A DNA stretch of 64,000 nucleotides from Gnetum montanum (lineage: Eukaryota > Plantae > Gnetophyta): NCBI GenBank assembly GCA_015680685.1, contig MNCI01000808.1:94667-158666 (forward strand), given 5' to 3'. Below are positions 5,528-63,960 of this stretch, piece after piece. Position numbers and translations under genes: made by a program. Under the pieces are notes generated by a model. That model saw nothing but the letters and a program-made list of their open reading frames with translations. It made no database searches and was not told the DNA's origin. Each line of letters opens with the position of its first letter. Positions within the stretch are counted from its first letter, which is position 1.

Positions 5528-6430
5528 TGATGAGCAATGAGGTACCCCTATGCCCAACCATACGAATCACGAAGTGTCCAAAAGTGATTCGATCGAATTC
5601 CGTAGACTTTATTGTTTCCAATGCACTAGTCCTTTAAGAAGTGAATCTAGCCTTAAGGTTAATTGTTGTCTTCCCAATTATACTTGTGACATTCATTGGT
5701 ATGGTTAAGTGTAACTGAGGCATCCAATTTTTATCATTTTATGTTTTATAAGTTGGTGCTCAAATGTAGATAAAAGGAAATTGATTAACTAATCTAAATT
5801 AACTAATTAACTAGCATTTAACTAATCCCAACATAAGTATTCGATCCCACTTTCTATACATGTCCTAAGCCCACGTATCCACTGCTAGGAGACCAAGTGC
5901 TATACTACTAGGTGTAGCAAGTAATAACGCTATTGGAATTACCAAGCGAATACATGTTATGCTCGAAGTGGTCATACTTATGTGTGTAATCTATTTAGAT
6001 TAATTGATTCACTAATATAATAATTGGAAAATATTTAATAAATAATGAAAAATATTTAATTAAATAATTAAAAACATTAAATGCATAAATAAAATAGCTA
6101 ATCTATCCAAGTGTTGCAAGGTTTATCAAAAAGCTCATCTTTATTGCTGCACAAACTATCATGCTCAAGTACAACAATGCTCAAATAAAGATTTGTACAC
6201 TCAATGACTCCTCCTACGAGCACTTGGGGGAAAATTCTAACTTTCAAATGGAAAAAATGCAAACGCTCTGCTACAACTACAATCTCTACTTGCCATAAAT
6301 GCAACTGCAAGCATGTATTTATTACCAACTATAGGCACTACGTCGACGGGGCCACATTGATGCATGATATGATGCATCAACTAGACCTCGTCAATGAGGC
6401 CTAGACGATGAGGCCATGTTGATGAGGTTT
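5528..6430 (-). mobile_element. 5' LTR (3' part) of Athila-like copy 1; may extend to ~9967
   Basis: Homologous to 23690-24538. A possible LTR start TGATAAGTGC is on the - strand at 9967, but that boundary is unverified. Confidence 0.65.
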
Positions 6431-7439
6431 CATCAACGCAATCGACAAAATGTGACTCATCAAGTTTCAACTCAGAAATTTGTGAATCAAGTATTTGTAA
6501 AAATGCTAACCCTATTATGCACTAGAACTAATTCTTTTAGCTCTGTGAATCCATTTCTATTGATTCAAAGCCTAGCTAATAAGCTAAGAAAGAGATATTC
6601 CTTAAATCAAATTGCACCCTCTTGAGCTCTTCTCCTAGAGCTAATTAATTATCCAATGCTACAAAAGGATATCTTATATAATAAAATCTGGCTTGAAATC
6701 CTAGCTCTTCATGTAGATTCTCTAAAACTTGGCTAATGAGCTTACATAATTAACTCCTAAACAATTTTCGAGCTACTACCATATATCCATAATTTATAAA
6801 ACCGTTACAAAAATAAGTTGAATCATTTTCTACATTTCTATAAACAATATACTCTTATAAGCTTCACTCTTCATTTATGGCTTTTACTTTGTGCACTCTT
6901 ATTTGGGGAATATATGACTATGAGCTAAAATCTAATGTAAATCCACAAAATTTCCTTTTAAGCTTAAACAAAATACTTCTTATTAATTTGGCACAAGTGA
7001 TTCATACTAATCATATCCTGTTAGTTAATTAATCTTACTTTTTAGAAGCTTTTAAACATTTTCAAATTGAGCCCAATAATTCTAATATTTGCTATTCCAT
7101 AGTGATGGCAATTGTTGTTATAACAACAACATCCAAGAGGAGGTCAAATATCAAACATCTCAAGGGAATCCATCTCCAACTAGTCATACAACTTGGTGCT
7201 AGCTCTTAACAACCAAACATATGAACATCCAAATAAATTAAACTAAACATTGATGATGGAAGAATACAAATAGCATCCAACATGATCACATAATCTAAAA
7301 AGTCTAACAATTGACTCCGAACTAAAATCAACATGCCAACATAGTCTAGGTCTAACAAATTAAGTCAAATGGGGTTAAAAGTTGTTGAAATGGATCAAAG
7401 TAAGCTCCAATAGTAAGAAGAGACTAAAAATAGTAAAAT

Positions 7440-8290
7440 TGGTAAACCACAACCTAACCATGACCTCACCATAACTTGTGATATTTATAGAACACTTAAT
7501 AGAAAAAACTACAATGAAAACCATTGATAATGACTTGACCACAAGCTAACAATGATCCATGGGGGATAGATGATGATTTAACCATGACCCATGGTTAATT
7601 GAAATTCACAAGAAATGGTGCAAGATGGCAAAAACAACAAAGGAAAGGTATAGCATTACCTCATCAAAGCTTCTAGTTGACCATAAAACTCACAAAATGG
7701 CATAAAATAGTGACAATAGCAAAGGATGTTGGATCATGATCTCACCATAACTCATTGTTTAACCATGATTACACCACAACTTATGGTGTTACAAGTTTAT
7801 GAAAATAAAGAGTGAGAAATGCATAGGATGGCTGGGGGTAGATGACAACCTCACCACGACCCTACCATAATCCATAGTGATGAATCATGACTTGACCATG
7901 ACTCATGATCAACACTAGTAGTCACATCATGACTCATAATTGACTTGTGGTTTTGGTGCTAATTCCAAAATTGTGCAAAAGGAAAGATATAGTATTACCT
8001 CATCATAACTCACAATTGACCATAAAACTTACAAAATGGCATGAAACAATGATATTAGCAAGGCTAGATTTAACCAACCATGATTGGACCACAACTAGAC
8101 CACAACTCATTATGTTGCAAGTTTATGAAAACAAAGAGTGAAAATTTCATAGGATGGCTTGGGGTAGATAACAACGTCACCACTACCATGACCCATGATG
8201 ATGGATTAAAACATGACCATGACTCATGGTTAGCATTGGTAATCACATCATGACTCATGGTTGACTTGTGGTTTTGGTGCATATTTTGAA
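7440..8290. repeat. Degenerate ACCA(C/T)GAC-rich short repeats with a ~350-bp tandem duplication (7630-7960 vs 7985-8280), probably LTR-derived
   Basis: Duplicated blocks such as attacctcatca...ttgaccataaaact.acaaaatggcat, and cataggatggct.ggggtagat. A similar array lies at 21880-22280. Confidence 0.6.
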
Positions 8291-9383
8291 AAAGTGCAAA
8301 AAATAGCTCAAAAAGGTCAAAAAAAATCATCAAATGACAAGGGATACTAGGGATGCAAAGAAGAAGGTCAAGAAAGCATAATTAACTTAACAAACTAAGG
8401 AAGAAAAGACTAACAAAACAATAATGCAACAAAAGGATTCAACCTAAAAAAAACTTGTTGAAAACTCATAAAATAATGAAGACTTGGAATCTCGTGAAAC
8501 TACTAGAACCCAATAGAGTCTACACTAAGATGAACATATCAATACCTTAATATAGATAGAAAGATCAATACTCATGCCCCAAATAGTTACTAGAATAATT
8601 CTCAAAAAACCCTTGAAAATTAAAGATGGTGAAAAACATAAAATTACAACAAAAAGGAACATTGAATTAAAGCACAAAGATTAAGCAATAATAGTGTATA
8701 AAGTAACACCTAAACCCAAATAAAAATTCATATAAATCTAAGAGAATTAAATAATTCCTAACCCTCATTGAAAGTGCACAAACCTATGAACTAAAAAAAA
8801 TAGAAAAAGTGCCAAGATTACTCACCTAGAAGATCAAAACACACAAACTCAACCACAGACTCTCGTAATTCCACACTTATGAATTAGCAAAGATCCATGT
8901 ACCACCATAAGCCTTCAATTCAGTAACACTTCCATGTCCAAGAAATTGGATGCCAAAGAACCCATTGAAAAGAGTATGGTATTTTTATGGAAAATCATCC
9001 CAAAACCCATGGTAACTAAAACTAACTAATTTTCTAAAAACTAAAATATAATTATATTAATCTATCATAAAAATCTCATGTAACGTACATAACCTCCCAC
9101 AAAGTCAAAAAGCATACAAAAACCATAAAAATAGGAAACAACACATATCATAATAATATAATTACTAAAATAAAATAATGCTCACATATAAAAATCAATT
9201 GTGCCATTACATGGCCATACCATGTACATACCATATCTTCCATGAGAATTTGTGAAAACTCATCTATTGGTTAGTGCATAGTAGTTACAAATAATAATAC
9301 ATAATTAAAATAATGCATAATATTAAAATATACATATACATAAAATATAAAGCTAGAAATACCATTAACTAACAAGCATAACC

Positions 9384-16900: not shown

Positions 16901-19900
16901 AACAGAGACATCTTATGGCATCTATATAATAACTATAAAAATGTTAAGTGAGTGGCAGAAATATTAGCAGAATTAAGGCTAACAATCAGGCTTCTATCAT
17001 TTAAAATTTAAGCTTCATGAGAAGAACCAGCTTTTCCTGGCAAGAGATTGTGATTCCATAAGTTGTTGATGAAAATATGCATCCTTATGTAACTATTGGC
17101 AGTGAGTCATGTGAGTAATCACAAAGAATAGATGTGTGCATGTGTGATCCAAAGAACAATGTATGCAGTTTAAGTTAAAAGGAGGGTGTTGGAACCCAAA
17201 ATGATAACTAAAAGTATACCTTAAAAACATTCATGGGTATCAGAACCTGAAAGAATGATTATAAATAGACCCCAAGACATATAGGCAACACAATACTTTA
17301 AAAGAATTACAAAGTAATATAACCACGACTCTTTACATAACATAATTAAGTAGTTATTGAACACCAATGAAGAGATGTGTTTTTTGATGTATGTTTGTGT
17401 CCTTACTCAGTTTGAGATAAAAGAGGCTCTCTCTATAGCTTTTTGCATATAGTACAACACACACCATCTACATTTATTTGCGGTTGCAGATACCTCACAC
17501 AATCCAGATTTGTTATTGATACAGTTAGACTTTTTATTCTCTATGTTGTGGTTATCATTTATCCTCTTTGTTGTTAAGTTATATTCACAACTGCCATGTA
17601 CTCTTATTGTGGTTTAACATTATAGATGGTGGCTTACACATTGTGGTTTTTCCACTGTATTTTATATCTTACTATATTAATGTTTATCATATTCATTACA
17701 GTTTGGGACCATCATTTGGAGTGATGGTAAGGTGTTCATTTCTTAAGTCAAAGACCTAGGTTTGAGCCTGGCATAGCCATTCGAAGAGGTTAGGTTTTCA
17801 CTCATCTACTGACCCACCTGAGATTCCACTTGGTGGGATAAGCATTGTGGCTCCGGGTGATGATCCTTTTTGTTTTTGCTCATCACATTATTGACATTAT
17901 TACTATGACTGTTGCATACCTGTAACATTGCTGTCACAGTTTGATATGTTTGAATCATTTCTCTCAATTTCCTCAATGAACTAGGTTTTTCACTTCTTGT
18001 GGACCTCAAATTCCAACATGTGCTAGTTTTCCTTTCCTCATTGTTCATTAGAACCTCATAGATTTCTATGAGAATATTGAATCACTCTTCCCCCATGTGT
18101 ATTTATCTGAGTGGAGGGTTCTAGATATTCCCCTCTAGTTGTGAGTGAATTTTCTTTGTGCAGTTTCCTTTGTGAGGTCCAGATTCTCGAAGGGGCATTG
18201 GCCTGAATTACGGATCATATTCCTGGCTGTCTTTTCCCTATCAACCATCATTTTCATCCTTTTGGCTTTTGATTCCTGTCTTCCATGAACTGTCAAGTTC
18301 AGTAACAGTCATTTACTCATTTTTTCCTCTTCTTTAGGGAGGTACCTTATGATGTTCCCCTTAACTCTCAGAAGCTTTTTCTTGAGTTTTACTATTGCAT
18401 CCCCTTCTCAATAGCTAGTCAGAGCATCCTGGTCTTCAGAGGCAATATTGTGTAGACCTCAAATACCATCCTTCTTCTTTTCCATATCTTTGGTTGCTTG
18501 TTGTTGGTCTTCTGAAGAACTCAGAGGAGTCTTGGTGATGTATTTGTGTATTCTATTGGTGATGCGTTTGTGGTTTGATTAAATTTAGTACTGTTTGTTG
18601 TATTATTTCATGTAAGAATAGACATGTTGAGATGATTTTCATTAATACTATTGCTGGGAAATATACTATTTTGATTCTCTGTTGAATAAAATTGAAACTA
18701 ATGTCTGGTATGGTTCTTTTCCTGTTTGACCAGCAGTTCACTTAAACAGGGTATGGATTTCATGTACTTTTGTATTTCTAGCTAACCCATGAATATTATG
18801 GCATTGATACTTTTCTTGTGAATAAGGGTGGAGAGGATAAAAGTACTATATTTTCTTTATATTTCAATTTTGAATTTATCTGGGTTATGCATAGTATGGT
18901 TATCAACATTGTAGTCTTTTATGTGATTGATGGTTTATAACCATGCCTACTTTGGAAATTGTTGGAAGGGTAAAGTGATCGAGTTAATTTGCTTTGTTCA
19001 TCGTTGTTAGTAAGAAGTTGAGTAGTCTGATTCCATGTTTATTTCACATTGCATTTGTTTTGACAGGTTTGATGCATAGTGGATTTTTAGATATGTCAGT
19101 TTGACATATTGGCATGGTCTTTAGACTAGAGCCTTGGTCTGCTATTTGCATATTATGTTTTTCTGTGCTTATACCTAATTTCTTACACTGAATTTATTTG
19201 TTGTTAATGATAGTTTGATTGCAAGCTTTGATTTTTTTTGTTGCCTATTATGCCACAATGATCGGCAGATTGTTGGAATAAAAGTACCCTTGCATTTTGG
19301 AGCAGCATTTTGAGTATTAGCTCTTACTTCCTAGCGTAGGAAAGAGAGTTACATCCTGATACGAAGTTCATACTTGGCCATATATGGGTTCCTGGTATTT
19401 TAGATTTTTATTTAAGAATGTTGTCTGTATATCAAGAAGTAATTTCCACCTTTGCAGCAGTTAGAGTTCAAATAGTTGTCTAGTTAGATGCAGTAAAGAT
19501 ATGCTTGAAATCCACTTCTCATTGTCGAAATCCAATAGTAATGAGTCTGATTTTATATTTGTTTAGGATGCCATTTGCCTTAAGTTTTGTGCTGAAAATC
19601 TACACTTTGGGTAAAGGTTTTTTAGTCAAATGAAAAATCACAAGCCGATGAGAGCATAATTCAAATGGTAAGGTAGTTTATACGAGCATAATTCAAATGG
19701 TAAGATTCTTCTAGCTGCCTCCTGAAACACCTTGTATCATTCTTCTAGTTGTGCTTGGGCCTTCTTGTGGAAGTGTTTGACCTTGTTAGGGTGGAGCCCC
19801 CTAGAAGTATTCTTGATGTACTTATGTAGCCCCATCCAAGGTGATTTCTAGTTAATACCTATAATGACATATCGGCACTTGCCTACCATTGGATTTGTGA

Positions 19901-22900
19901 GTGTTGGAGTTTGAATTTACACCTTATGGAAACTCCAAAATTCTTCAGGATCTAGTGAGTAGGAAGTAATATTGCAGAATTGTAAGATCATAACTTTCTT
20001 CGTAATGATAATTGCTTTTCGTAATTTTTTGTAGTTGTGAGTATTGTAAGTCTTATTAAGTTAATTACTTACGAATCCTCTTATGATGAATAGAGTTACG
20101 TTGTCTTGATTTTGTAACTTAGTATTGATCATAAGCTATTATAGATGGTCTACAACAAGTACTATTTTGTAATCGAAGTTCAGCTATGCTAATGTTTGTA
20201 AGAATTTCTTGTGTTTCGGTGGTGTTGCTCTTCCTGTGGTAATACATCTTTTTTTGGATTGCATTTGACTCTTCATCGTAAGCTAATAGTATACCTATGA
20301 CCATGGTTCGTAACTCATTATATTACAAATGCTTGTACATGGACTTATCAAAGTTCCTACTTGGTACATCATTAATCTTTTAGTGAACTCAACTTCACCT
20401 TGTTCACTGTACTTCGTTAAGTCTTCTTTAACTTAACTTCACAATCTTTTTTCATACTTCGCTAAGCCACCCTTGTCTTAGCTTTATTTTCTCACAAACT
20501 AATTCTTTGTAAGTCTTCCTTTTCTTATTCCATTGTAACCTTTCAGATGACCTTCTCTTCCTCTTTAAGAAACTGGACCAAACTACATATGACACAACTA
20601 GGATCTTCTCTTCCTTTTTAGGAAGCTGGATCCTATGTTACAAGGATTGCATGTGTCTCTTGGAACACTTATTAGGTCTTTGAATGGAACTGATTAACTC
20701 TTGATCTTCCTATTCACACTTTTAGCTTACAATATTCTTCATTCGTACTTTTATGAATCACTGCTGTTTGTATCTTCTGGTTCACCAACATTACTTGTGG
20801 TTGTTGTTCTAATGCCACTTCTCTTCTTCTTCTTTAATTATTGTCCATTTGTTCATTCATGCACTTGTTCTACTTATTCTTATTCCTTATTCCATTTCCT
20901 TTCTTCACCACACATTTATTTTGATAAGAGCTTGAGAGTTCTTGTATTTCATGAGGGATTGTGACTCTTGTTAAAATGTCATAACCTTTTGTAACAACTC
21001 ATAGATTAAGTTAAGAAACTAATGATTGTATTTGAACTTAGGATTATATTCTAATAGTGAGCTAGGTTTTTGTCTCTTTCTCGTCTTCTCCTCTTAGAAG
21101 CTTTTAACATGCTGAACCTTCTCCTCTTCCTCCTTCAGATATTGTTCCTTTGCTTCTCTTCTCTAGTCCTCTTGGATTTGCTATCTTAACTAGTCCTCCA
21201 AGGAACTATAGAACGCAACCTTCCTAAGTATTCATTGTTGGTTGTCTTCCTTCTTCTGCTTTTTGCAGCACTATTGCTCCTTTCTTCGCACTTGTTCCTC
21301 CAAATTCCTTTTGGCCTATTCCTTAGCCAACATGTGGTTCTTTATCTCACGCATGTTCACTGCAAACTTCGCTTCCAACTTCTTTGAATGTTAGCCTCTG
21401 TTTCTCTTAGGTATTGCTGAAAGAGGTCTTGTGGCCCCATTGTAGATTGAGAAAGGGTCTCTTGGTGTTTGGATGTGTTGTTGAGGTGAGGGGGTTAGTT
21501 CCCCTACCTTTGCCTCCATTGTTGTTGCAAGCTTTGGTAGACTTTGCAAGGAAGATGCCTCATCTTGCAGCACATGATGTTGGGAGTAGAACTTCTTGAA
21601 GTAATGATTGGTGGCCAGCCGTATAGTCGGGCCCTTTGGCGGCTTCATAGCTCCCCAAAGAGCAAGGATAAGTTTTGAGTGATGGCCCTTCCACCCCCTT
21701 CTTAAAGCTGCCAAAAAGAATTTTGGCAGATTGACCTCTCGTTCGAGTTGCAAATAGTGCATGAAAGCAAAGTGGACTTCTTGGAGTTGTTAGAGTTGGC
21801 GTGGTGGAAGGCTTTGGAATGCATGGAGAATGGTTTTAGAGTTTGGAGTTTGAAATTGGCAAAATCTACAAATTTGGCTTGACCATGCGTTGTGGTTCGC
21901 TCATGGTCTTCTCGTGGTGCTTGACTATGGGTGGTGGTGGTGTCATGGTGTCCTGACCATGGGTGGTGGTCAGGTTGTAGTGGTTGCTACAACTACTTTT
22001 TTGTTGTCCTCAACCTCTTGAATTGTTTTTTCTTGACCATGAGTCATGGTGAGCTTGTGGTTCATGGTCAGCTCGTGGTGACCTTTGAAACTTGAAATTT
22101 GTTGCCCTTCCCTCCTACATTCAAATTGTTAAGACCATGAGTCATGGTGGCCTCATGCTATAATACTATGAGTTGTGGTGGTCCAAAATAGAGAGATTTT
22201 TACTCTATGTATATCACAAGTTGACCATGGGTCATGGTTTGACCTTTGTACAAACCACGAGTCGTTCTTGGGTCATGGTCTCACCGAAAAACATAATAAA
22301 GAGCCATAGCTTCAAATTTATGAAGAATTTGAGGATGGAATGGCTTGGAGACAATTTAGGGAGCTTAGATCTATGGTTTTATGGGCTGACTTTAAGCTAT
22401 AGACATGATAATGGGTCACATGAGATAAATTTCGAAGGAAAATGACATTCTCCATGAATGGACAGCTTAAGATGAAATTTGGCAACAAGATGGTCATGCA
22501 TGTGCACTTGAAGTGCTCAGAAATTTAGCTGAACATCAGAGGCTTCTTCTTAAGACATTGGGAGGCCACTTCCATACAATCAATCATGGAAATTAACTTG
22601 CTCTTTGACATACATAAAAGAGAGCTTCAACATGCATAAATATGCCTATGCTTTAACACAATTAACACGTAAATGGGGCTTAATAAGACATCAATCGTGC
22701 TCAGAAATGTAAAGCATGAGGACCTCAAGCATTTAGTGGCTTGAGTCTCTTCAATTTTTACATAAAGCATTAAAAACAAAGATTCAAACTAGAGCCATTG
22801 ATATATGGTCTCTTTTCTTGAACTAAAACCTGCTCCAAATACATGCAAAAAGACCTCCAATCTCTTCACATATTCTTAATGAGAAACATCATACATAATC

Positions 22901-25900
22901 TATTAACATATTGGAGGAAAAAGCATTGATAGTCATCAAATTTAGAGTGGTTTTGAAGCTAACATATGTGCATATTCTTCTGACCTCTAATCCTTTGATC
23001 TCTATTCTCCTAATTCCTTTGAACATGCAACATAGATTCATGGTATCCATGACCAATATAGAAAGATAGGGTGAAAGTGGGTCTCCCTGATGTAACCCAT
23101 GATTAGGGGAGGAAAATCCCAAAGGCACCCATTGATGTCAAAAGAAAAAGCTTCCATACTTTGGAGGTGGATATACATGTCAACAAATCGAGGGTGAAAT
23201 CTATTTCTTAACATTATCTCTTTAAGCGATTTCTAGTTCACTGGGTGATAAGCCTTGGCGATATCAAGCTTAAGGAACATACCTAGGAACTTGGCCTTGT
23301 TGGTGTAATGCATGATCTCTTAGAGTAGTATAATTTGATTCTAGATGTATTTAGGGCATCAGTGGTTGCAACCTTCTAACAAGAATCTTTGTGAATAGTT
23401 GAAGTCAAAGTAGTTTGTTGTAGACCCTAATTGGTGTTAAATTTGAAGGTCGGAAGGGTTTCTGATTTTTGGCACAAGAACAATTCTTGAATAGTTTATT
23501 TCTCTTCTAATTTGGCCCCACTTGAGCATAAGGTTGAAGGAATATACAAGATTGTCATCCAAATTGTCAAAGAATTTCTTGAAGAATTCAATTGACCAAC
23601 CATTGGGCCTAGGGGCCTTCTCGATTTGATGTTGAGGCTAGCATCAAAGATCTCCTACTTAGTCATGGAAGTGAGAATCCTACGGTTATGGATAAAGCAC
23701 CATATGTTCGGCAGTTGTGTTGACACAGGCCCGTCAATGCATGTTAGATGCATTGACGCCTTGCTACTCGAAATCTATAAATATGCACACACCTTGGCAT
23801 TGGGCATGATAGTTTTAGTAGTGTAGCAAAGCTTTTGCAGTTTCTCTTTGTAGGACTTAGTTAAATTTCTCTCAAAGTGCCTGCAGTGTGGATTGAATTG
23901 ATTGTATGGAATATTATTCGAGTGCAAGATGCACCTGGACACTTCTGCATGAATGACAATAAAATCAAGATTGATTCCCTCTATTGCAGCATTTGGATTA
24001 GCATTTAATTTACCTTTAAGCACTTCACTTTTCATACACTTTACTTTCAAGTACATAGGAAATTAATATTTTATTTTGTCACAACGTGAGTACGGCCACT
24101 TCGAGCATAATGTATTAATGCTTGGTAATTCTAGTAGTGAATACTTAGTACATTCAACAGTAGACACTTGGTAACACAGCAATGTTTATATACGTTTAGG
24201 ATGTGTATAGAAAATGAGAATAGATGCTCCACATTTAGGATAGTTTAGTTAATTAATTAGTTAATTTAAATATTAAACCTTTCTTTATTAAATCATTTTG
24301 TAGTCAAAGAAGATAATAAAAAATTATAAAAATAAATGTTTTACACTTCAATCACACTTAACCATAAAAATGAGTTAACACAAGTGATGATTGGGAAGTC
24401 AATGACTTGTAACCACGTCTTTAACCATATAAGAACATAGGCCACTTAGATAAAACATAGTCTATTGAATTCGACTAGATTGCACGTACATGCTAGTGAT
24501 TCATATAGTTGGGCATAAGGAATACTTGCTGCTCATCATTGGCATCATAGTTGGGGACCTTCATTTTAGCTAAGTGCACTAAGTACTATTAGATAGTGAA
24601 ATCATACAAAGTCATTGTAAAAAGTAAATAACACAACATCTTTCAGAAAATTAATAATAATATTTTATCAAAGCATACTATATCAAAACAAACTAAGATG
24701 TCTTCTTCTTGTAGGAATGATTCACCACCACTTGTCGATGACTCTAACCAGCAACATGATAGAACTAGAAGGTATGCTAGTGAGATGCCTCAATAACTGA
24801 AGGTTGTCTATGCACATCAAGATCCCTATTATCCAAACTTCAACTTCATCCTCCATCAAGATGAACAACTATGCTAGAGGGATTTGGAGGACAACATTGT
24901 GTTACCTCTCGATCATTCTATTTCTTCAATGCTCATGGTAGCTCTCATGAAACTGGGGCTTGAACTAGTAGGCCCAAATTACCAAGTAAAAGGGCACCTC
25001 ACTGGGGATATCAACCAACAAAGGCCCAACTTAGGAAAGATCAATGCATGGAGGCATGCCATGAAGCCTCCAAGGGCAAACAAGTCTCTATCTTACTATT
25101 TTTGCAATCATAGGAGGGCCTAGAATTTATATTAGGGCAATCTCAACACCAAGGTCCTCTTTTCGATGAGGGAGACACAACTTACCAATGGTTACAATCA
25201 ATCTTGGTGGGTAACCAGGGTGAGGGGAGAACTGGTTCTAGAACCAGGAGAACCTCAAGGCCAAGGTTTCTGAACCATGCATCAAAAGATCAACCAAGGA
25301 ACCAAAGGAGAAGGGCAAGTTGGCACCACTCTCCTAGTCCTTCACCTTCACCATTCTCCTCATCGTCAAACTCTGATAGGAGGGACTATGACCAAGATTG
25401 GAGGAATGATCAAGATTGAGATGGAGATGATCGAAGGTTCCATCGTAGGGATGTGAGAAGAAAGCATAGTCATTGGCAAGAAGAAGGGAAGCATCAATAG
25501 GAAAAAAGACATAGTAGGTTACATCATAGGACACATGACCATGATAGGGGTTATTGTGAACATAATGACTATGATGAACTATTGCTTGCTACAAGAAGCA
25601 TGATCAATATTTTAGAAGCAGTTCATATTCCTATCAAACATCAAAGGAATAGTTGAACCAAATAGCTTGATATGAACAAAATCCCTAAATTTGAAGGAGA
25701 GTATAATGCTGATCCACAACATCATTTGCAAGCCTTCCATGATGCTTGTGCCTTGCAAAGTATTGAAAACAAGAGGTAGAAACTTAAACTATTTCCTAGG
25801 ATACTTATCAAAGAAGCTAAAAGTTGGTACCGATCCTTGAAGCCGTAATTTATTTACAGATGGAGTACAATGCTAGAGTTGTTCAACAATAAGTATCAAA

Positions 25901-28900
25901 CGTACTCTAGGGTGTCCAACTTGAGAAAACAAATCTAAGGATGGAAACAAAGCAATCATGAAGCCCTTGATGTAGCCTTGGGTAGGTATTGCTCTCTTTT
26001 GCATTGATGCCTAGGCCACAGTTTTTCTCAAAGGGAATAGCTTTGCCACATGATAGATGGGCCTAAAAACAAAACCAACGAAAATCTTGGGGTTTATGCC
26101 CAAAGGAGATTATTAGAGATGAGGGCCCATCAGATCCAAAGACTCATTGATCAAGTGGCTAAAAATGAAGGAGAACTCAAAAAGAGAGAAAGCACAGAAG
26201 AGTACAACAGAGACCCCTCTATTTGCAAAAGGGAGGAATGCTTTTGTAATTCTAAGGAGGAAGCACCATTGGACAAAGTGGTACAAAGGAAAACCTTGTC
26301 GATCCAAACATCTATTATAGAAATATCGGCCAAGGTGGACAAAATGTGGGACTCCTTGGATGAGAAGTTCCAAACTACTTTAAAGATTGTGGACAAGAAT
26401 ATGGGGTAGGGAAATTGAGATAGGGATAGAAGAAGGAGAAAGGATACATGCAAGAACTATTATCAGCAAAAAGGTAAGGTTGCAGCAGCTGATGAGGTTG
26501 TAGATTTTGAAATAGATGAAGAAGAATGTAACATATGCCAATATGAACATCCTGAAGGATGTTTTTCTATACTATCACACTTAACAAGAATTTGGGATGT
26601 ATACTTTAAGTCTGAAGTCTGCAAAAAGGCAACCACCTAGGAGATTGCGTTATCCACAAGGTAAGTATTGGTAGCAATTACATCAACCATAGTATTATCC
26701 AAGTGGAGCACCACCTTAACCTCAAGACCATTATCATCAATGGAAATACCCACATTTGTAGGGGATGCTACCACCAAGGTGGCCATACCCTTATCGTCAA
26801 TTGGATCTGTATGGTAATTATGTCCAACAACCTATATCTTCTTGTAGCTCTGCAAACCACACTTACTTCTCCCATCACTATTATCCCCTTGAATATCACA
26901 AAATGCCTAGTTCATGAGCTGAATCTCCTTCCACTTATCCTCCTCATTATCCACCATCTCATCTTGCACCTTCCAATTCCACTCCTTTGCCACTTGCATT
27001 GCCCATGCAAGGTAAAATTCCACCACAACTTCAACAATGCAATGCAACAAGGGCCATGGACTTATAGTTGGATTACAATTTGAATGGCTCTGAGTGTAAG
27101 CTTAAGAAAAGGACTTTATTTAAACCTAACAATTGACTTAAATCCTCACAGACATCTGTGGTTGCTCATCCTTCACAAACTACTTCAGAAATTATCAACG
27201 AGCTGTCTTCAAAGAAAATGTTCCAAAATGTGCATATTGGTCATGTTAACTCATGCAGTTACCAATTGGATTAAAGCATGTCATCATCTCAGGAAAATAT
27301 CTGATCCTAGAAGTCCTCTACTCTACTTCCATTTGTAGGAAATGATTCATATAAAGCTCTACTAGGCTCAGGTTTCTGTTTGAACTTAATTTTTCAAGAA
27401 ATGTACAAAACTTAGAACCTGCCTCTACTAAAAAAATGTAACATTTGATTACAGCTTGTTGATTAATCCATCATTGTTTCCTTGTGATTGGTGGAGGATA
27501 TTGTGACCACCGTTTGTGGGTGGTCATATCTAGTGGATTTCTTGATAATCCATGTGAACAACTGTAAGTGGGACTTTCATATTATCTTGGGAAGGGCTTG
27601 GCTCAACATAATTGATGCCAAGCTAGGAATTAGAGACCTTTCTTTGGAAATCTCTAAGGAAAATGATTTTGGAAAAATAGAGAAGAAGAGGGTTCCATGG
27701 ATCATGTATAGCGACACAGGGTGTCATTGTGTGCAAAAAATATGGGCTATAAAAAACACCTCCATCACAGTATGCAAAAAGTGTGTTGAAACGTTAGATG
27801 TTCAAAGGTGCCTATACGTAGCAATCACAAAATAGGAAGGTATCCAATGGTTGACCACAGATGATAGCTCCAATTCAACAGTGTGCATGAAACTAGTTGA
27901 GCTTTTCACAAGTACTTATATAGGTAAGATGGATGAAATGCAGCAAATTCAGACCCAACTCTTTCACACAGAAGTAGATATAGATTGGGGAGAGTTGGAA
28001 ATCCTTGAGAACTTTAAACAAGAATCCCTTGAATTCAAATCTTTACTAGCAACTCTAAAGTATGTATTTCTTAATAATGGCAAGTTGGTAATTATTAATG
28101 CAAATCTCACTAAAGAACAAAAGGAAGGTTGCTAAAAGTTGTGAACAAATGACCAACAACATTTGCTTAGTCATGTCATGAATTGATTGGAATAGATCCA
28201 TGCATATGGCAACATCGGATCTATACGGACAAAGTGATTGCCTCGAACCTGCACCGCAAAGCACCAACAAAGAAACCCTCAACAAACTCACAAGCTAGGG
28301 GGCGAAAATTCAGCGTGCCCTCCCCAACCCCCACAAGGACACATTGGTTCCAAAAAGAAAAGGGAACACCGTGAATGCAAACCAAGCCCAGAACCAACCC
28401 AACAGAGAAAATAGACCAAGCAACAAACTAGCCGACTGAACCTAAGAGACGAGACACGAGTTCTATCAGAGCCACTACATATACATAGGCAGGGTGTGAC
28501 ATTTGCGACTCTGCCTCTTGAGGATGTGCAGAATGTCAAGCGTGTTCTTGTGTAATTCAGAATCCATGAAACTTGTGGCCTACTAGAAACCTTGAAGTGC
28601 AGCCTCCCTTCGAGCCCACTCCTTAGTTGACCCACATTCGTTCGAATGGAAGTGCACGGAAGTTCGGTGAATATGTTGCCAAAGCGCTATCCACGTGGCC
28701 TCATGATTTATCCCCAGAGTAACGTGTGGGCACTATTCTTCCTCTAGCCATTGTTGCATGCTCTGCTTGTGTGCCCTATCCGATTGGTGTTGTTGCTACA
28801 CCTCCTTCACCTGCTCTCGAGCCCGTTGTATGTGCTCTGTTTGTTCCCTTTTCCTTTGATTGATGTCCTCCTGCTTTAGCTTGGCTTGGACTTGGTCGTG

Positions 28901-31900
28901 CAGCTCATCCACCATCCTTGCTCGAGAGGTCTTTGCCTATAGGGCCTGCTACCTGATGAGCTCCTGCTCCCGCTTGCGGAATTGTGACTCTAGGTCGGCT
29001 TGCACCTGTTGGAAGGCCTCCTCCCAATGGGCCTCTCAAGCTCGTCACTCTTTAGCTTTGGCCTTAGTTGTTGCCTCCTCAACAACCTTGGCCAGCTTTG
29101 TAGTGAGCACCAAAGCCCCACCTGAACCCGTATCGGCTGGATTTGCCCCTACCATGGCCATTGGCATTGGAGTTGGTGCCCCTTGCAGCTTGACCTGCTT
29201 CCTGGAATACACCATTGCAGCTTTTGTGGTTGCCCCTAACCTAGAAGGTGCAAGGATATCTTTCACTGGCTGCCTAGTAGCCAAACCCCACCAAAGGGCT
29301 AGGATGAGCCCGGAATGTCATCCCCTCTTCCGCTACCACAAGACTTCGAGAAAGAATCAGGGCAAGTTGATCCTTCGCCCAAGTTGCATGCATTTCAAGA
29401 AGGCAAAGTGCATGCCTTGCAACTTGGAGGCATTGCTAGATTGGATGAAAAATCTACCTACTAGCTTAGCAGCCCGTCTCCAAATCAATGGTAGGCCAAA
29501 CTTGGGCACCTGTCTGCTCTTTGTACGTGGTATCACTCTAGCAGGGAAAAATTGTTCAGCATCCTAGAGCCCTCTAGCAGAAGAGAGAATAATTTCTCCA
29601 GTTGTCGGGGCCTCCAAGTAAGCAGCCAGTGCCATCTTTGTCAGCGTGATCTCAATCCCCCTAAACTCCATCTTGTCAGCTCGCTAGTTGGAGAAGAAAG
29701 TGTTGTCAGGGAGAGCTAGGTTGTCCTCTAAATGCGGTAGCAACTCTACCTAGCCAGATTGTTCAACTAGACACTAGAGCTCCATGTGTGTGCAAAACAC
29801 CATGTAGGCTGGCTCATACATTGGCGTGATCCCCATGGCCACGACAATTTCCATTCACACCTTCTCCATTCGAGTGACAACATGCACAGGGTTAGGGACA
29901 CGTTGTTGTCGGAAGATTTTATTGTTTCTTATCTTCCATGCCTCCCATAAAAGTAGCGTGGCCTTTGAATCTCTCGTCAGCGGTGCTAAGGCATGCCACC
30001 CCACCTCCTGTCGCGTGTCCTGCATGTAGGGGCGTTGAAACATGAAGTGAAGTACGATCTCGGGCCCACTACTGCACATGGGATAATTAATGTCGATGTT
30101 GAGGTTGCACCTTTGTAATAATGCCTGTACGGGTAGGGCATTACTCTCAATCAGCCAGAGGAACACTTTGATTTTCTTTGGTAGTCTCCCCTGCCAAACT
30201 TGCTTCTAGCCAGAGACCGGCGGGTATATCGATTTGATGAGTTGGCACAGTGTCTTCCCCATCCATCCCTGTGTTAGCATGCGCTAGGCATGCATGCAAA
30301 GTGTCTTTCAGGGCCTACAATCATGCACCTTCATTTGTTGCCTATCATATTTCCATCGCATGATGTGAATCCACTGTGCAGTCCCATCTCCCTATTGGGT
30401 CAATTGTAACATTAGTTATTGTTGTTCCATAAGAAGCTCGTCTTTAAATTTGAAAATGCCTAGGCCCCCTGCTTCTCGAGGGTGGGCAATCCTGTCCCAT
30501 CCAACAAGATGCAAATTACTCCCCCCTTTATCCCTTGACCATACAAAGTTTCAGATTAGCTTATTGATATTTTGGTTTACGGTTAGCGACCGGGGGGGGG
30601 GTGGGTTAGCAATGGCAGCCACAAAACATGCCATCATCGCAAGTACCCAACATGCTAGCACCAGTCTCCCTTTCTTGGAGAGAAAGTAGTTAGCCCAATG
30701 GCCTACTTGCTCCTTAATTTTTTGAAGGACCGTAGTCCAAGAAGTGCACTACCCCTAGGCAAACAATGGGATCCCAAGGTATGAGTCCTAGGGTGACCCT
30801 GGGAGAAACCCCAGCACTTGCGTGATCCAACTCCTTATCTGCACGTCCACATTAAGGAACTAGGCCAAGGACTTCTCTTGATTAATTGCCTAGCCAATCT
30901 CCCCCGCCAAAGATTCCAGTGACTTGTTAATTTTGCATGCTAGGGGCACCCCAACCTAGCTGAGAAGCATCATGTCATCAGCGTAATGCTCCACTAGGCA
31001 CTCCACCCCTGCAACTTCCAGCCCTTGCACTCTCGCAGCCTTGAAATAGTATTTTAGCAGGTCTATGGTGATAATAAATAGCAACGGCGAAAGGGGGTTC
31101 CCTTATCTTAAACCTCGATTGGGGGAAGCAAAACCCCCATAGTTTACCCCCCACATCAAAGGAGAAAGTGTCCAACTCTTGCATTTGGATGCATAGGTGC
31201 ACAAAGGTAGGATCAAAGCCCTTTTGCAGCATAATGGTAGCGAGCACCTTCCAACTGATCATATCATACGCCTTCATAATGTCTAGTTTAAGAAATAGTC
31301 TCTGGAAATTCGAGATTCGCAAGGAGTGCATAATTTCCTACATAGGTATCACCTGGTCCTACAAGAATTGCCCCAGAACAGACTCCGTTTGGTGCTCACT
31401 CACGACCTTTGACATGATGGGGACTAGCCAACGGACGATCATCTTAGAGAAGATTTTGATCAACACATTACAGACCCCAATGGGCCTGAAATGAGTAAGG
31501 GAAGAGGCATTGGCCCACTTGGGGATGCAAACGATTCTCAAGCAGTTAATCTCTTGACGCACTTGGCGTTTAGCCAACATCAGGTTGAAAGCATTGAGAA
31601 CATTGGGCCCCACAATATCAATATACTCCTTAAAGAAATCAATGTTCCAACCATCCAGCCCTGGCGCTTTACCCCCAACATGGATCCAATGGTGACTTTT
31701 AACTCTTGTAGGGTGAATGGGCCCATCAACTGAGCGTTGTGCTCTTCATCCAACACCTGCGGGACATGCACAAAGATCGGCGACATAGGTTGCTTTGTCC
31801 AAATCATGCCCCAATAGTTAGCCAACAACTGAGCCACCATTTTAGGATCATCCATGAGGGATTCATTCAACCATCATATGAAGGGGGTGTTGGTTCAATC

Positions 31901-34900
31901 CTTGAGACTTGGTTGTCACAAAGAAAAATCTCGTTTGCTGGTCGCCCTCCTAGAGCCATTTGATTTACGACCTCTGTTGCTAGTAAGTTTCCTCTTTGAG
32001 GTCTAGTGCCTGCAATTGTTTTAGAACCCCTACTTCATTGTCTTGTAGGTCCTCTCCCATCTTTTTCCCTGCTTGGATTGTTTGCAACTGGACTGGAGGT
32101 CCCTGCAAGCAAATTGAAATGAAAATTTATTTTGCACAACTTGTGATCAGATAGTCCACTTCAGGCAGAGGAGGCCATCCCGCAAAAAGTTCTTGGGGTC
32201 CCTCCAATATCCTCGGTAGTCTACCCAAATTTCTTCCACCAAGGGGTGTAGCCATGAAACTTCAAACCTGAATGGTTGACACAATCATTTCCAAGGAGTC
32301 CCCAGACAGCAAATGATCAACCAGTGATCCGAAGCTTGCTGCTCTTTATTGGAAACTTGCACATCCAATCGTATCAGAAGCTTCGAGTTGGCCCAAACCC
32401 GATCGATCCTAGAGAGGACTCATTTGCCCCCCTATGTTCATTACTCCATGTAAATTGACAATTTGCGATTTCCCAGTCAACCAGCAAGTGCAACACTAAA
32501 AAGTTTTGAAATTCCTGACCCCTTGGGGGGCTGGTATAGTCAATGCTCAACTTTTCCTAGGGGTAAAGCCATTGGTTGAAATCATCCACAATGAGCCAAG
32601 CCCGTTGATTTGGGATCAGTGTTGCCACTTGCTCTAGCTCCTGCAACTAGAGTTCCTAGGCTTGGGCCTCGTAGAAGTTTATCAACCAAAGGCTTCGGGA
32701 TGGCACATAGACAATAATGCTCCATTGCAATGAATTGATCATCGAAACCTTAGGACGTGCCAGGATGGCCAGACCCCCCACATGTGCCTGACATAGTCTC
32801 GGGTGTAGATTCCAACCCACCCATCATGGGTGGAATGTTTTAGAAGCCTACATCTTAGTTTCCTGCAAGCAGACAATGTCACATTCCTCACTTCGCACAA
32901 TCTCCTGTAGGGTATTTCTTTTATAGGGTGTACCTCATCCCCTATAGTTCCATGAAAGGATCTTCATGCATGATTGGCAGATTGTCGTTGGTAGACCTCT
33001 TTCAGGGTCTGTTGTATACCCAAGTTGATATGCCTCCTTGTTTGCTTGTCCTAGGATAGCAGACTGGACGGGTAGGCTGGCTTGCCACCCCCCCTCCCCC
33101 CCCTCCCTGTGGCGAGATTGGAAAACTACTAAAATCTTCCAAAGGCGGATGAGTTGAAATTGGCATCCATGGCTTGGAACTCCCCCAAACCACATTAACC
33201 CAATCGCCCAGTGGGGGGAGCTCATCCCTTGATTTAGTGGTTGTGACAAAAGATGGGGTAGCGGGCGATGGGCTATGCGCTCCCCCATGCACCACTTGGG
33301 GCACATGAGGACTAGTAGGTGAAGCCAGCAACCACCCTTGTTGCCCCACCAAACCCTATCCCCTGCCTTGAGGGTTTGCCTTCGGGTGACGTGCAGGAGC
33401 CTTGGCCTTGCATCGTCTAGGACCTCGAAACCGACACTTGCCCTCATGGTGGTCATTTTTCCCACACAGGGAGCACCCCTTCTTGGCCGGCTCGATTATC
33501 TCCACTAGCTGCTCCTCCTCCAAGTTCTCAAATTCTGCCTAGAGTCGTTTGTCACCCCTCGGCAATTTGAGCACCACCTCCTTGACCAAGTCCTTGGATG
33601 ACTAGGCCCACCAAACATAGAATCAAGCGAAGCCCATGCACTCCATTGACAATGTAAATTTATCAAAGGAGATAAACTCCTTGAAAAAACTAGCTATCTT
33701 CTGCAAAAACTCCAGATTCCACATTTTCCGGGGAATCCCAGAAATGCGCACCCAAATCAGTGCACAAGAGAATAGGTCTAGCTCTTGGTGGGCCCCCCAT
33801 TGCCAATATGGAATTGCTAGCCCCCTGGCACTATAGAACCATGGCCCACCCTGAAGGACTACATCCCAGTCCTCGAGGCTCTTGAAGATGGACAATAGCA
33901 GGTTGTTTGACAAACTATGCACCTCTACCTCCGTAATCTTCTAGACCTCCATAGTTGACTTGCGGATGAGGTCTAGCCTAGGCTGGGCCCCAAATGAAAC
34001 AAAATGCCCAATCAGGCTACACTCCATGGTCCAAACCCCCGTGTTAGGAGGTTGATTAACTTGTAACCTCATCACACCGTCTTGGTAGGAGCACATCTCA
34101 ATACCCCCATTCGCAAAACCAAAACCACCGCAGCACCTATGTCCCCCGTTGAGCCTTTGCTAGCCTAGGGATCCCCCCCAATGCTACCACGCATAGCCTC
34201 CCCCATGCCAGCTTTGGCCCCCGCACCATCCCTAGCTTTGGCTTCCGTGCTTACCATCTCCAGAACTGTCTCTAATGATGTTACTTTCATGCATGTTACT
34301 TTCAAGTACTTAGGAAATTAATATTTTATTTTGTCACAATGTGAGTACAACCACTTTGAGCATAATATATTAATGCTTAGTAATTCCAGTAGTGAATACT
34401 TGGTATGCCTAGCAGTAGACACTTGGTAATCCAACAGTGTTAATACACATTTAGGATGTGTATGGAAAGTGGGAACGGATGCTCCATGTTTAGGATAATT
34501 TAGTTAATTAATTAATTAATTTAAATATTAAACCTTCCTTTATTTAATCATTTTGTAGACAAAGAAAATGAAAAATTATAAAAATAAATATCTTACACCT
34601 CAGTCATACTTAACCATACAAAAAAGTTAACACAAGTGATGATTGGGAAGACAACAACTAGTAACCATATCTTTCACCATCTAAGAATATAGGCCATGGA
34701 ATTTGACTAGATAGATCATGCATACATGCTAGTGATTCGTATGGTTGGGCATAGGGAATATTTGCTGCTCATCAGTTATCCTCCTAGCCAAGGATCTGTT
34801 GAGTAGGAATCATTATGGGGTTGGAATTTCCCCTCTCCAAAATTTCATTCCAAAACTTTTGCATCACTTGAGCTATATTCTTAGTCATGGATAACTTGGT

Positions 34901-44450: not shown

Positions 44451-46024
44451 TCTTTTGCATTTGCTCAAGATAATAAAGCCAAGAATTCCCACAGTCAGGA
44501 GGTATCACAGAAGTAGCATGGCTGGGAAACTAATGATTTTTTTCCCCTGAAATGCAATTTTCAGTTCTTTTATGCAACAGTGTTCTTTACTTTTTGTAGT
44601 ATCTTTTCTTGTTGCTACTTCCAGAAAATAAAACAGCAGTTTAAATGTTCGTTTTTCTCTTTTGTTGGGATATAGTCTGATGAATGTATAAATTTACTGT
44701 GTATTGTTATTCATATTTAATGTTGAAGACTAAAGCAAAAGACTAGGCAGCATAGCTGGTTCATATGAAAATGGCTGTTACTTTCTTTCAAAGTTACGAA
44801 GTGCATTTTGTATGACTATTGTTGCCGGACTTTTGAACTGAGAGTTATCCCACATGAGTTGTAGGGAGAGGGCCAAAAGCCTCCAAAACCTATGCTTATC
44901 CCAACTACAATTGAGAAACATGGATGAAGTTTATGAAGAACTGAACTGCTGGCAACATTTCATCTTGATATCTGGGCATGCTCTTCTAATTCTTTTATAT
45001 GCATTGTTCTTATTATTTTATATGCATTGTTACTTTGAGTATCATCCCTGTAACAGTATTTTGCTTCTATTCTATATATGAATGTTATAATATCAGTAGT
45101 TTACTTTGAGTAGTCACTTCCAAAAATTTTGTAGTTGATTCATGTTTTCATTAGGCGTTTATGTTGCATGAAGCGTTGCCTCCTAAACCTTTAAAAATAC
45201 ACTTTAAGCTTGTGTGTTTTAAGCTTGTGTGTTTTGGAAGCCAAGAATTTCAAGTATGAAAAAGACTTGACCTTTCTCAATTTTTGCTACATTTATTATT
45301 TTCTTATCAAATTCACATTATAACAGTTAAAACATCCAGAAAAGCTCATGCTTCTTCAAAGACGGGGAAAATTGGAGTCATGGGCGGAGGTAGTGAAGGT
45401 AGCAAGTGGTACAGTGCCCTAGCATGGGGGTGGGGGTGAGGGGGGCAGCGAGATGGAGGGCTAGGGATGCACTTGGCGGAGATGGTGGCTTGTTTGTGGC
45501 GAGTGAAGCACTCGGGAAGGAGGGAACTGATTGTAGTGAGGGTGTGGTTCTTTTGAGGTTGTCATGGGGGATACATGGCTTGGTGCAAGTTCCCCCATGG
45601 ATGGTGGGGGTTTGGCGTGTGAGAGTGTGCAGGTGAAGAGTACCAAGTTTGTGAGTGGTGTAGAGTGCGCAGATGGCTAGCGCCCTAGAGTGGGTGGTAT
45701 TGATGTGATTTTGTGGTCCAAGGGATCCATGTAGTTGCAAATATGTGGCCCTACACTAGAGGGTTTGCAAATAATGAAGCTTAGCCTCATTGGAAAGTTC
45801 CATGTCAGCTAGTGCTCGACTGTGTTTGGAGTTCATGTGGCACTAGGTTGTTACTTCATGGAGGGTGGTAGAGGTACAAATTCGCTCACTTATGGGGGAT
45901 CTTCTGCTGTTTACCTTTCAAAGCAACAAGGATTGGGACTGTGTGTTGTTGTGTGGTTCATAGTTTTTTGATGCTATGGGCTTGGCCCTTACCCTTTGGT
46001 GACCCCGCCAAGGGGGGGAGGGAG

Positions 46025-46114
46025 GTGGGGGGTGTGTCCATTGGGATCCTAGCCTTTTTACGTGATCTCGTGGGGGGTGTGTCCATTGGGATCCTAGCCT
46101 TTTTACGTGATCTC
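46025..46114. repeat. Perfect 45-bp tandem duplication in LINE C ORF1
   Basis: gtggggggtgtgtccattgggatcctagcctttttacgtgatctc x2. Confidence 0.9.
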
Positions 46115-47344: not shown

Positions 47345-47523
47345 GGAAGCCAAGAATTTCTACAATGCCTCCAAACCTTCGACATGGTGGAAGCCAAGAA
47401 TTTCTACAATGCCTCCAAACCTTCGACATGGTGGAAGCCAAGAATTTCTACAATGCCTCCAAACCTTCGACATGGTGGAAGCCAAGAATTTCTACAATGC
47501 CTCCAAACCTTCGACATGGTGGA
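47345..47523. repeat. Perfect 44-bp tandem repeat x4 in the LINE C endonuclease region
   Basis: ggaagccaagaatttctacaatgcctccaaaccttcgacatggt starts at 47345, 47389, 47433 and 47477; no spacers. Confidence 0.95.
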
Positions 47524-54600: not shown

Positions 54601-54972
54601 TGAGATTCTTATCATACGCTTTACACATTCACATGCCAAAACCACACCTGAACAATTTGCAACATAGTGCTAGAGTACAAATGCCTAAATATTGAAATCA
54701 CACATAAAACATAAAGACATACTAGATAGGTGCTCTTATAACCTAGTCCAACACCCCTATGAACAACCTCATCTACTTAGCACATCACACAAGGCTAGTG
54801 TATATAATCACGTTAATTAAGCATGTGAAGACATCATAATCGTAGCATAAAGACGAAGCCTCATAACATATGAAATACATTAACTCGTCCTCAACAACCC
54901 ACCGGGACTCCACACGTATGTATAAATCATAAGCGTATGGCCATACCTACCATCATTAGATGAGATGTAACA
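51695..54972. mobile_element. Solo LTR (Ty3/gypsy-like, TGTAAC...GTAACA) with TSD GTGGT/GTGGC
   Basis: gtggt|tgtaacacac ... gagatgtaaca|gtggc. Confidence 0.8.
53617..54310 (-). mobile_element. Copia-like solo LTR with perfect TSD TATGC, nested in the solo LTR above
   Basis: tatgc|tgttataatc...ttccaaca|tatgc; gaaccacgtaa motif on the - strand; internal cagatctgaaaaca repeats at 53626-53700; absent from the paralogue at ~38650. Confidence 0.88.
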
Positions 54973-60532: not shown

Positions 60533-60649
60533 TAGTACTAAGAAGCATTAGGCACATCTATAAAAATATATAAGCTTTAAAACAAATTAAATTCTAAGTA
60601 TTTAATAGAATACTAAGGTGACATGTACAAATGCTTGACTTCTTAGATG

Positions 60650-61774: not shown

Positions 61775-62370
61775 CAATTTGTAAAGAGGAGATATATCCA
61801 AGATCAAATCATTCTTCTTCAAGAATTGATGCACTCAACAAATAAAGCTGAATTCATGGGTATGTTTCTCAAACTTGATATTGTCAAGGCCTATGATTCG
61901 GTTGGTTAGTTTGCCTTGCAGGAAATAATGATAAGGAAAAAAGTCCACAATCACTTTGCTGAGCTATGTTTACAAATATAGAGATTTTGTGCCTTTGCTT
62001 TTGATTTCAGTGGACAACTAGGGAGGTTTTTCTCCCCTCATAGAGGTTTGTGCCAAGGGGATTCCTTCTCTTCCTACCTATTCATACTAGTTATAGACAC
62101 AATGAATGACTATTGTAGGCTTGAAGAAGTAGGGGGGCTCTAAGTGGAAGGTATTGCTTGCCTTGCAAATCATTATGCTGATAACACCATTGTCACCACC
62201 AAGGCCATAGCTCCAGATGCTATTGCTATCAAGAGAGCCCTAGACCACATGGAAAGTGAGCTAGACCTTAAAATTAATTAGAGGAAGTCTAATGCGCACT
62301 TCATTCACATGGAGAGTAGTATGAAGCTTAAAATTTGTAGACTACTGGATATTCAAAATGGATCCTTGCA
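61775..62370 (+). mobile_element. LINE RT fragment (probably copy D)
   Basis: FLKLDIVKAYD, RGLCQGDSFSSYLF, HYADNT. Confidence 0.85.
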
Positions 62371-62867: not shown

Positions 62868-63960
62868 AAGTTTAGCAATGTTTGGAAGTTGTAGGGTGTG
62901 CACTTTGCCTTCATGCAGTGTCTCTAACTAGGAAGATCCATCAATCTTCCAAAGTTCTTTCTTGTTGTGCTTCAGCAGTGGTAGCAAGGAAGGCATTCAG
63001 GTTTGATTTTGACCCTTTGGAGGGCTGCTTGACCACCAATGGCTTTGCCATCCTTGGACTAGTGTGTTGAATGCTCTTTTACTAGGGTTTACACTAGATG
63101 TTGGGGGGCACGTGAGACAATGACCTTGTTTGGCAAGGGGAACATTTTCCCTGAGGGTGTTTCTGCAACTTTCCCTTTGTAGGGAACAATTTTGGTTGGG
63201 GAAGGGCTTGAGCAACATGAGGAAGAGTAGGAACTTTGGTGGTAGAGGCAATTGTTGGAGAGAGAGGCTACCATGAGAAAGGGATTGAAGGATATGTTCT
63301 TGGTGGACCTTTGCAGGGTTGCATATGAGATTGAACAATGCACAAGGGACGAGGAGTAGCTGAAGAGAGTGAGGGAAGAATAGGCTTGTAGACAAGAGGA
63401 GGAATAATAACAAAAATGAAAGGAGAAAGCTTAGTCGTAATGGGTGATGTAAGAGGTCATTCAGCAAAGCATCCTTGAGGAGCACTTGTCTGATGAAATC
63501 AAGGAATAGTTGTGGAGGGAGACAAAGGAGTAGGAAGTAAAGGAGAAGGAGGAGACCCTTAGGCATGTGAAGGAGTTTTTGGAGGAGGCTATGAGGAACT
63601 GCCAAAATAAAATGATGGCATCCAATGCCAAACTATTGTTTAGGGAGGGTAATTGCCTATACACTATTATGGGTATAAAAAAGACATACTTTGGGATAAT
63701 CTCAAAAAGTACATCATGTAGACCTCTTGCACACTTCATTCTGATAAGGTATTCCACATGGCAAAATATGTTTAGGATTAGCATGAGGAGAAATACAAGA
63801 ATTTCCAACAAGCTGCAGGGTTCATGTCTTCAGAGGAGAATTAGGAAATTGTGCATATGGTGCATAGACAGGAAATGCCTTGTTACACCTGCAAGAACCT
63901 ACTGTTCACAGTATGAGTTGTTGTTTTTGAAAGGGTATGGCTGTCAGATTTTGTGTGTTT
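62868..63960 (+). pseudogene. LINE D 3' module: conserved core, coiled coil and J-domain
   Basis: HFAFMQCL*LGRSINLPKFFLVVLQQW*QGRHSGLILTLW ... CLYTIMGIK/DILWDNLKKYIM*TSCTLHSDKV...HEEKYKNFQQAAGFMSSEEN*EIVH; HSD at 63737-63745. Confidence 0.78.

Follow-up and report, generated by a model that had tools for sequence, protein, structure and literature searches.

The window analysed here, the whole 64,000-nucleotide stretch of Gnetum montanum contig MNCI01000808.1, contains several decayed pieces of long interspersed nuclear elements (LINEs), and three of these copies, A, B and D, share sequence downstream of the reverse transcriptase (RT) that ends in a J-like domain. At about even confidence, the segment at 19705-19901 can be read as the remains of a J-domain that closed the 3' end of a plant L1-type LINE, now dead; the active ancestors of this LINE probably had the His-Pro-Asp (HPD) motif intact and would thereby have recruited host Hsp70 to their own particle of RNA and the protein of the second open reading frame (ORF2p). 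What is new here is the linkage of a J-domain to a complete L1-type LINE, together with a test of its motif.

The J-like domain and its ancestral motif

The copies and their J-like domains have the following positions in the window:

About 34100-28480, minus strand: LINE copy A
23619-19712, minus strand: LINE copy B
61790-63900, plus strand: LINE copy D
28480..28735, minus strand: J-like domain of A with a short His/Cys tail; motif HSN (cat tcg aac, 28648-28640)
19712..19880, minus strand: J-like domain of B, helices I-III; out of frame with the helix upstream, interrupted by two in-frame stops and without helix IV
19785..19793, minus strand: motif of B, HPN (cac cct aac), 22 residues after the helix-I Gly
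63633..63895, plus strand: J-like domain of D; motif HSD (cat tct gat, 63737-63745); a single frameshift, located in an A-run that follows helix I

The tails of A, B and D are homologous, with pairwise z-scores of 8-15 that were reached by 0 of 500 shuffles. A joint profile of the three matched 58 bacterial J-domains over 60 columns (hhalign E 6e-5, probability 65%; 22% without helix I of D), and its best PDB match was a J-domain (E 0.13) before the frameshifted helix I of D was added; with this helix, the top three matches among 177,635 PDB sequences were all J-domains (E 0.0094, 0.25 and 1.0). The spacing from the helix-I Gly to the motif His is 22, ungapped, in A, B and L001, a related LINE found in a metagenome, and the same spacing occurs in 103 of 120 bacterial J-domains, the other 17 being unparsed. 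A, B, D and L001 alike have a Cys six positions ahead of the helix-I Gly, which is also the case in 1 of the 120 bacterial domains. A scan of the window with a hidden Markov model (HMM) of these bacterial domains gave, among the top eight alignments, only one that was near full length, that of B; the signal vanished when the motif columns were masked. AlphaFold2 modelling of the domain yielded a poor model (pLDDT, the per-residue confidence score, 48) with helices 26-45 and 52-64 on either side of the motif; with this model as the query, the Foldseek search found 0 matches and the best VIA-align hits (Z 6.6) were unrelated helical bundles.

None of the four copies has an intact HPD, the motif reading HPN in B, HSN in A, HSD in D and YLD in L001. 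The original prediction had proposed that the codons of B, A and D derive from HPD solely by C>T or G>A transitions, the dominant decay in the window; the codons were reproduced, and the distances to HPD coding are indeed 1, 2 and 1 such steps, respectively. The decay pattern was borne out as well: in 12 repeat pairs of the window, transitions account for 63% of the differences (685/1,081), and of the 28 stops counted in two long frames of A, 27 are TAG or TGA and one is TAA. Counted in the same pairs by a permissive context rule, C/T differences affect 143/241 CG, 147/291 CHG and 384/1508 CHH positions, roughly double the CHH frequency in each of the first two contexts. The third codon positions of the J region are 22-29% identical between A, B and D, and the RT pieces of the subfamilies are 40-53% identical; A, B and D are long-diverged subfamilies and therefore each had a separate ancestor. 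Only four tripeptides, HPD, HPG, RPD and RPG, are able to decay to all four triplets by C>T or G>A, HPD in seven steps to those of A, B, D and L001, and the other three in 11-15.

Relatives of B were gathered from public contigs of four DNA runs (28 of 32 records), and nine loci over the motif, B included, were obtained from depth sums; the identities of the loci were deduced from coordinates and depth sums, and multiple solutions within a run were settled by agreement between runs. The sample was seeded on B and is biased to its letters. The loci read HPN (five), HSN (one), HLD (two) and xPD (one, with the His codon outside the aligned part). Codon 1 is His in all eight loci that cover it, codon 2 is Pro in six, Leu in two and Ser in one, and codon 3 is Asn in six and Asp in three. 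The sequence cct-gac holds a symmetric CHG site (CTG/CAG), at which top-strand loss leads to Leu and bottom-strand loss to Asn, and either change destroys the site; Leu and Asn occur together in 0 of the nine loci, and the neighbouring CHG sites at 19777/19779 and 19813/19815 follow the same either-or pattern. Both Asp and Asn are found inside and outside the sole visible subgroup of B relatives. Relatives of A were represented by 134 contigs of three DNA runs, few of which span the motif; among the rows listed, besides the HSN of A itself, at least one contig has Pro at codon 2, with Asn or Asp at codon 3, and loose ends in register read HLD in at least two contigs and HQD in at least one. 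Codon 2 of the A family thus appears as Pro, Leu, Gln or Ser, and Asp stands in at least two of the listed loose-end rows.

A consensus of HSN or HSD, which the original prediction had named as contrary to its claim, was not found, but the B-family majority was HPN and HPD was not given outright. A plain majority consensus was rejected as a test of the ancestral state, since CHG decay and seeding on B skew it to Asn. A star model of the nine B-family loci gave a likelihood ratio HPD:HPN of 6 to ~5,000 over 18 assumed rate sets, a ratio that assumes independent copies and guessed rates. This dependence weighs against an ancestral HPD, as do the majority of Asn at codon 3 of the B family (6/9, in the biased sample), the HQD row of the A family, which requires a transversion, and the Ser of copy D, which requires a CHH change, there being no D relatives among the sampled contigs; furthermore, the copies and sampled contigs include no intact copy and no single contig with all nine HPD bases. 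An ancestral HPD is nevertheless likely, because Leu and Asn exclude each other in the sampled loci and no other motif leads to the four copies in so few steps. As judged from these codons, HPD was probably the motif in the master elements of the B and A families, and its standing as the simplest ancestor is supported by the CHG either-or argument, which is stronger than the argument proposed at first.

Architecture of the elements and the relative L001

The remaining parts of the three copies are located as follows:

33625..33958, minus strand: DUF4283 of LINE A ORF1 (PF14111, 60.6 bits, cut-off 27.2)
32737..32958, minus strand: endonuclease of LINE A ORF2 (PF03372, 29.7 bits, cut-off 24.5)
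31206..31499, minus strand: part of the LINE A RT (PF00078, 39.3 bits, cut-off 29.6)
30020..30205, minus strand: zf-RVT of LINE A (PF13966, 34.9 bits, cut-off 27.5)
29260..29839, minus strand: accessory domain of LINE A (27% identity to L001 over ~190 aa, z 33)
28736..29100, minus strand: charge-rich helical segment of LINE A, in the same frame as the accessory domain
22985..23619, minus strand: RT remnant of LINE B (tblastn to A ORF2, 38-40% identity, E 1e-26 and 1e-5)
21620..21810, minus strand: accessory domain core of LINE B (z 20.6 to A, 27.3 to D, 9.4 to L001)
21062..21400, minus strand: charge-rich helical segment of LINE B (tblastn with the A extension, E 1.6e-10 over 21789-21070)
21057..21061, plus strand: target-site duplication (TSD) GTGAG, right copy, seen in the sequence
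19902..21056, no strand assigned: 1,155-bp insertion resembling a solo long terminal repeat (LTR), TG...TA ends, six frames without a long ORF
19897..19901, plus strand: TSD GTGAG, left copy, seen in the sequence
61790..62365, plus strand: RT remnant of LINE D (tblastn to A; PF00078 E 5.8e-6, 26.6 bits, under the cut-off)
62874..63029, plus strand: accessory-domain core of LINE D (63% identity to A, E 1e-12)

A search with the accessory core as the query revealed one protein match (P0003, a singleton cluster) among 1.84 billion representatives and one metagenome locus, L001, out of 243 pattern matches; three further homologue searches of protein databases gave 0 matches. L001 is a whole L1-type LINE: DUF4283, endonuclease, RVT_1 and zf-RVT are followed by the accessory domain and, beyond a long linker of low complexity, by a DnaJ domain that clears the Pfam threshold (PF00226, 35.4 bits vs. 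a cut-off of 27.8) and has 19 PDB matches at E<=0.01. DUF4283 is found in ORF1 of A and of L001 (75.3 bits in the latter) and was not seen for B or D; the endonuclease, RT and zf-RVT are present in ORF2 of A and L001, while B and D keep RT remnants only, that of B having no Pfam match on its own. By these domains A and L001 are plant L1-type LINEs, and in both the zf-RVT is followed in the same frame by the accessory domain, after which come a helical linker and the J-domain, an extension of ~450 aa in A and ~880 aa in L001.

In copy A, one TGA (at 29857) lies between the zf-RVT and the accessory domain, which are in frame, and the whole course from zf-RVT to J-domain keeps one phase, with 16 TAG/TGA stops along it; L001 passes from zf-RVT into the accessory domain without a frame change and with four stops, all TAG or TGA. 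Judging from the reading frames, the accessory domain and J-domain were likely fused to ORF2p rather than encoded by a separate ORF3. Among 23 ungapped J codons, 14-18 second positions and 2-10 third positions are identical; conserved second positions with third positions near saturation point to purifying selection on the J-domain. The accessory domain had no Pfam match at E<=1 and no PDB match, and its AlphaFold2 model was poor (pLDDT 41). The charge-rich segments of A and B probably form a coiled coil. In L001, positions 5980-7500 encode a charged low-complexity linker of ~500 codons between the accessory domain and the J-domain, which exceeds the linkers of A, B and D several-fold in length. 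A short His/Cys tail follows the J-domain in A (28480-28560, minus strand) and D (63860-63895, plus strand), and A-family loose ends have C-x-C-H in this tail, which is possibly a small metal-binding end. Neither a TSD nor a 3' poly(A) tail was found for copy A; L001 has a 9-A run ~140 nt after the stop of the J-ORF, and no TSD. Copy D runs past the end of the window and copy B is cut before its 3' end.

The insert in LINE B at 19902-21056, predicted from the outset, is confirmed as 1,155 bp flanked by 5-bp GTGAG duplications, and its TG...TA ends fit a decayed TG...CA solo-LTR pattern. The claim that LINE B continues past it is likewise confirmed, with corrections: the peptide that had been quoted is read in the minus-strand frame from 19901, but excision of the insert leaves the frame broken, since the helical part upstream and the J-domain are read in frames that are offset from each other just past the TSD. 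One B relative, known from a contig loose end, has seven extra bases near the frameshift and reads through. The match of B to its relatives ends at ~19712, whereas A and D, as well as loose ends of B relatives past 19730, extend further; helix IV of B is therefore gone. In addition, ~1.1 kb of other DNA separates the RT of B from its extension, and copy B is dead. Short degenerate repeats are common to 21900-22300 and 7639-8301, inverted relative to each other, and another element lies between the RT of B and the extension. A 21-bp direct duplication is seen at 19652-19704, where copy B is cut, and is followed by a weak trace of a Copia-type RT (RVT_2 E 0.078).

Proposed role and competing explanations

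It is an evenly balanced proposition that an old plant L1-type LINE lineage had an HPD J-domain at the end of ORF2p and that this domain, recruiting host Hsp70, served as a built-in co-chaperone. With HPD likely intact in active ancestors, the element would bring its own adaptor for host Hsp70. In such an ancestor, ORF2p would end in the accessory domain, the helical linker and an HPD J-domain, and the fused J-domain would recruit host Hsp70 in cis to its own ORF2p-RNA particle; there Hsp70 would make ORF2p, a very long protein, fold or become active, or would remodel the particle where the element inserts. A cis role is favoured because each RNA yields few ORF2p molecules, so that a J-domain joined to ORF2p would deliver Hsp70 to the particle of which it is part. 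The recruitment of Hsp70 is suggested by analogy. The Hsp70 interface of J-domains comprises helix II, HPD and helix III (PMC10410713), and Hsp70 plus Hsp40 suffices for the activation of hepadnaviral RT (PMC2094093). Hepadnaviruses are likewise mobile replicons dependent on Hsp70, but they borrow the host Hsp40, whereas this LINE would encode its own J-domain. About 2% of one RNA run, too little to judge by, contained 0 reads on copy A.

DUF4283 is described as the main domain of ORF1 in plant LINEs, and RNase H as an addition to ORF2, located 3' of RT (PMC5203782); plant L1-clade LINEs, some of which have such an RNase H, resemble A and L001 in having DUF4283, endonuclease, RVT_1 and zf-RVT in the same order, and differ from them in lacking the extension of accessory domain, helical linker and J-domain after zf-RVT. 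The term 'DnaJ' occurs 0 times in the main text of that paper, the supplement, which likely has the table of ORF2 domains, being outside the search. Insect R1 LINEs captured a viral SF1 helicase at the C-terminus of ORF2 (PMC4686597, PMC6338049) and are thus alike in having an extra C-terminal domain; here, it is a chaperone adaptor rather than an enzyme, in an element of the plant L1 type. Plant LTR retrotransposons, too, have additional ORFs (Transposase_28/32, ATHILA ORF1 type) that are located 3' of pol and contain a helical part (PMC7264820, PMC11728184), but the host element here is non-LTR; none of these Pfam families matches the accessory domain, and 'DnaJ' occurs 0 times in the available parts of the two papers. 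Class C J-domain proteins (PF00226) and the LINE domains share helix I, the spacing of 22, the HPD-type loop and the helix III pattern, and L001 passes Pfam; the domains described here differ in being retrotransposon-encoded and C-terminal, with Cys for the usual Asp before helix I, a divergent helix II and no intact HPD. Among ~280,000 J proteins, an RT or transposon architecture is unmentioned in the available parts of PMC10410713, including one supplement. No description of a LINE-encoded J-domain was found in the titles, abstract openings and passages covered in the literature, Repbase and subscription journals being outside the search. Viral J-domains exist, e.g., that of polyomavirus T antigen.

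Several observations weigh against the proposed role. The J regions of A, B and D have no Pfam DnaJ (PF00226) match, copy B scores 4.8 bits with the HMM of the bacterial domains vs. a best of 2.6-7.1 in 15 shuffled windows, the basic residues of canonical helix II are only partly kept, and the J-domain of L001 does not resemble those of A, B and D above chance (hhalign E 0.54; z -0.8 to 1.6). The J-domains of L001 and of A/B/D may stem from one capture followed by fast divergence or from two separate captures. That the tail is a conserved helical domain resembling a J-domain by chance would agree with the null-level score and with the modest hhalign probability, in particular without helix I of D, but the PDB list is headed by three J-domains, the Gly-to-His spacing is exact and a genuine J-domain stands at the end of the homologous element L001, which makes a chance likeness exceedingly improbable. 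Certain J proteins of plants function independently of HPD (bioRxiv 10.64898/2026.09.14.751395), and a late master of B, perhaps also of D, might already have lacked Asp or Pro, its J-like domain binding Hsp70 without stimulating it or being a plain scaffold. The prevalence of Asn in the B family, the absence of HPD from the four long copies and the distance of the A/B/D domain from canonical J-domains are in line with such a loss; it is unlikely, however, given that the one split visible in the B relatives has Asp on either side, that HLD would take two unfavoured changes, twice, and that HLN is absent from the nine loci.

The main rival arises because plant J proteins take part in silencing, as SILENZIO does with MBD5/6, and also counteract it, as DNAJ1/2/3 do with SUVH1/3, according to the same preprint: with the same anatomy and HPD, the accessory domain, helix and J-domain would constitute a separate ORF3 protein that works on chromatin against silencing, bringing Hsp70 to methylated copies. 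The junction of copy A, where the TGA is followed by ATG, fits a separate ORF3 equally and speaks against the fusion; a Met also stands 7-8 residues before a shared YEP in A and L001, and many 5'-truncated copies would retain just this part. As the L001 junction shows neither a frame change nor a clear natural stop and the accessory domain matches nothing in Pfam or PDB, this alternative is doubtful, if still a realistic one. LINEs transduce 3' DNA, and through this established process a host J-domain exon could have been gained as a functionless passenger, a history with which a separate capture in L001 would accord. It is quite improbable in view of the in-frame position of the domain at the same place in subfamilies with RT pieces so divergent (just 40-53% identical), the conservation of second codon positions while third positions are near saturation, and the Cys before helix I shared by all four copies.

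Known extra domains of LINE ORF2 are enzymes (RNase H, helicase), and a J-domain in a co-chaperone role would be a handle on the host chaperone system. If this is true, it becomes testable whether LINE particles need Hsp70 for maturation or integration, and whether transposons turn J-domains against silencing, the machinery of which depends on J proteins too. There is also a lesson of method: in a CHG-methylated genome, a majority consensus converts HPD to HPN, and such domains are therefore easily missed or called dead.

Other repeats in the window

The window is repeat DNA of plant type, with a GC content of 30-48% and an observed/expected CpG ratio of 0.12-0.42; positions 1069-2030 are a run of 962 N. 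A direct repeat pair at 24030-24538 and 34285-34774 (82% identity) resembles two LTRs, and LINE A sits between its members, after a plus-strand gag/protease-like region, with no TSD. Further L1-type remnants akin to A occupy 34900-37300 (minus strand), 45657-49351 (plus), 51300-56644 (plus) and 60629-61001 (minus); in tblastn searches, all four stop before the 3' extension and none retains it. Two perfect tandem arrays lie within a decayed LINE, one at 47345-47523 with about four copies of a 44-bp unit and the other at 46025-46114 with two copies of a 45-bp unit, and they represent either recent duplication or an assembly artefact.

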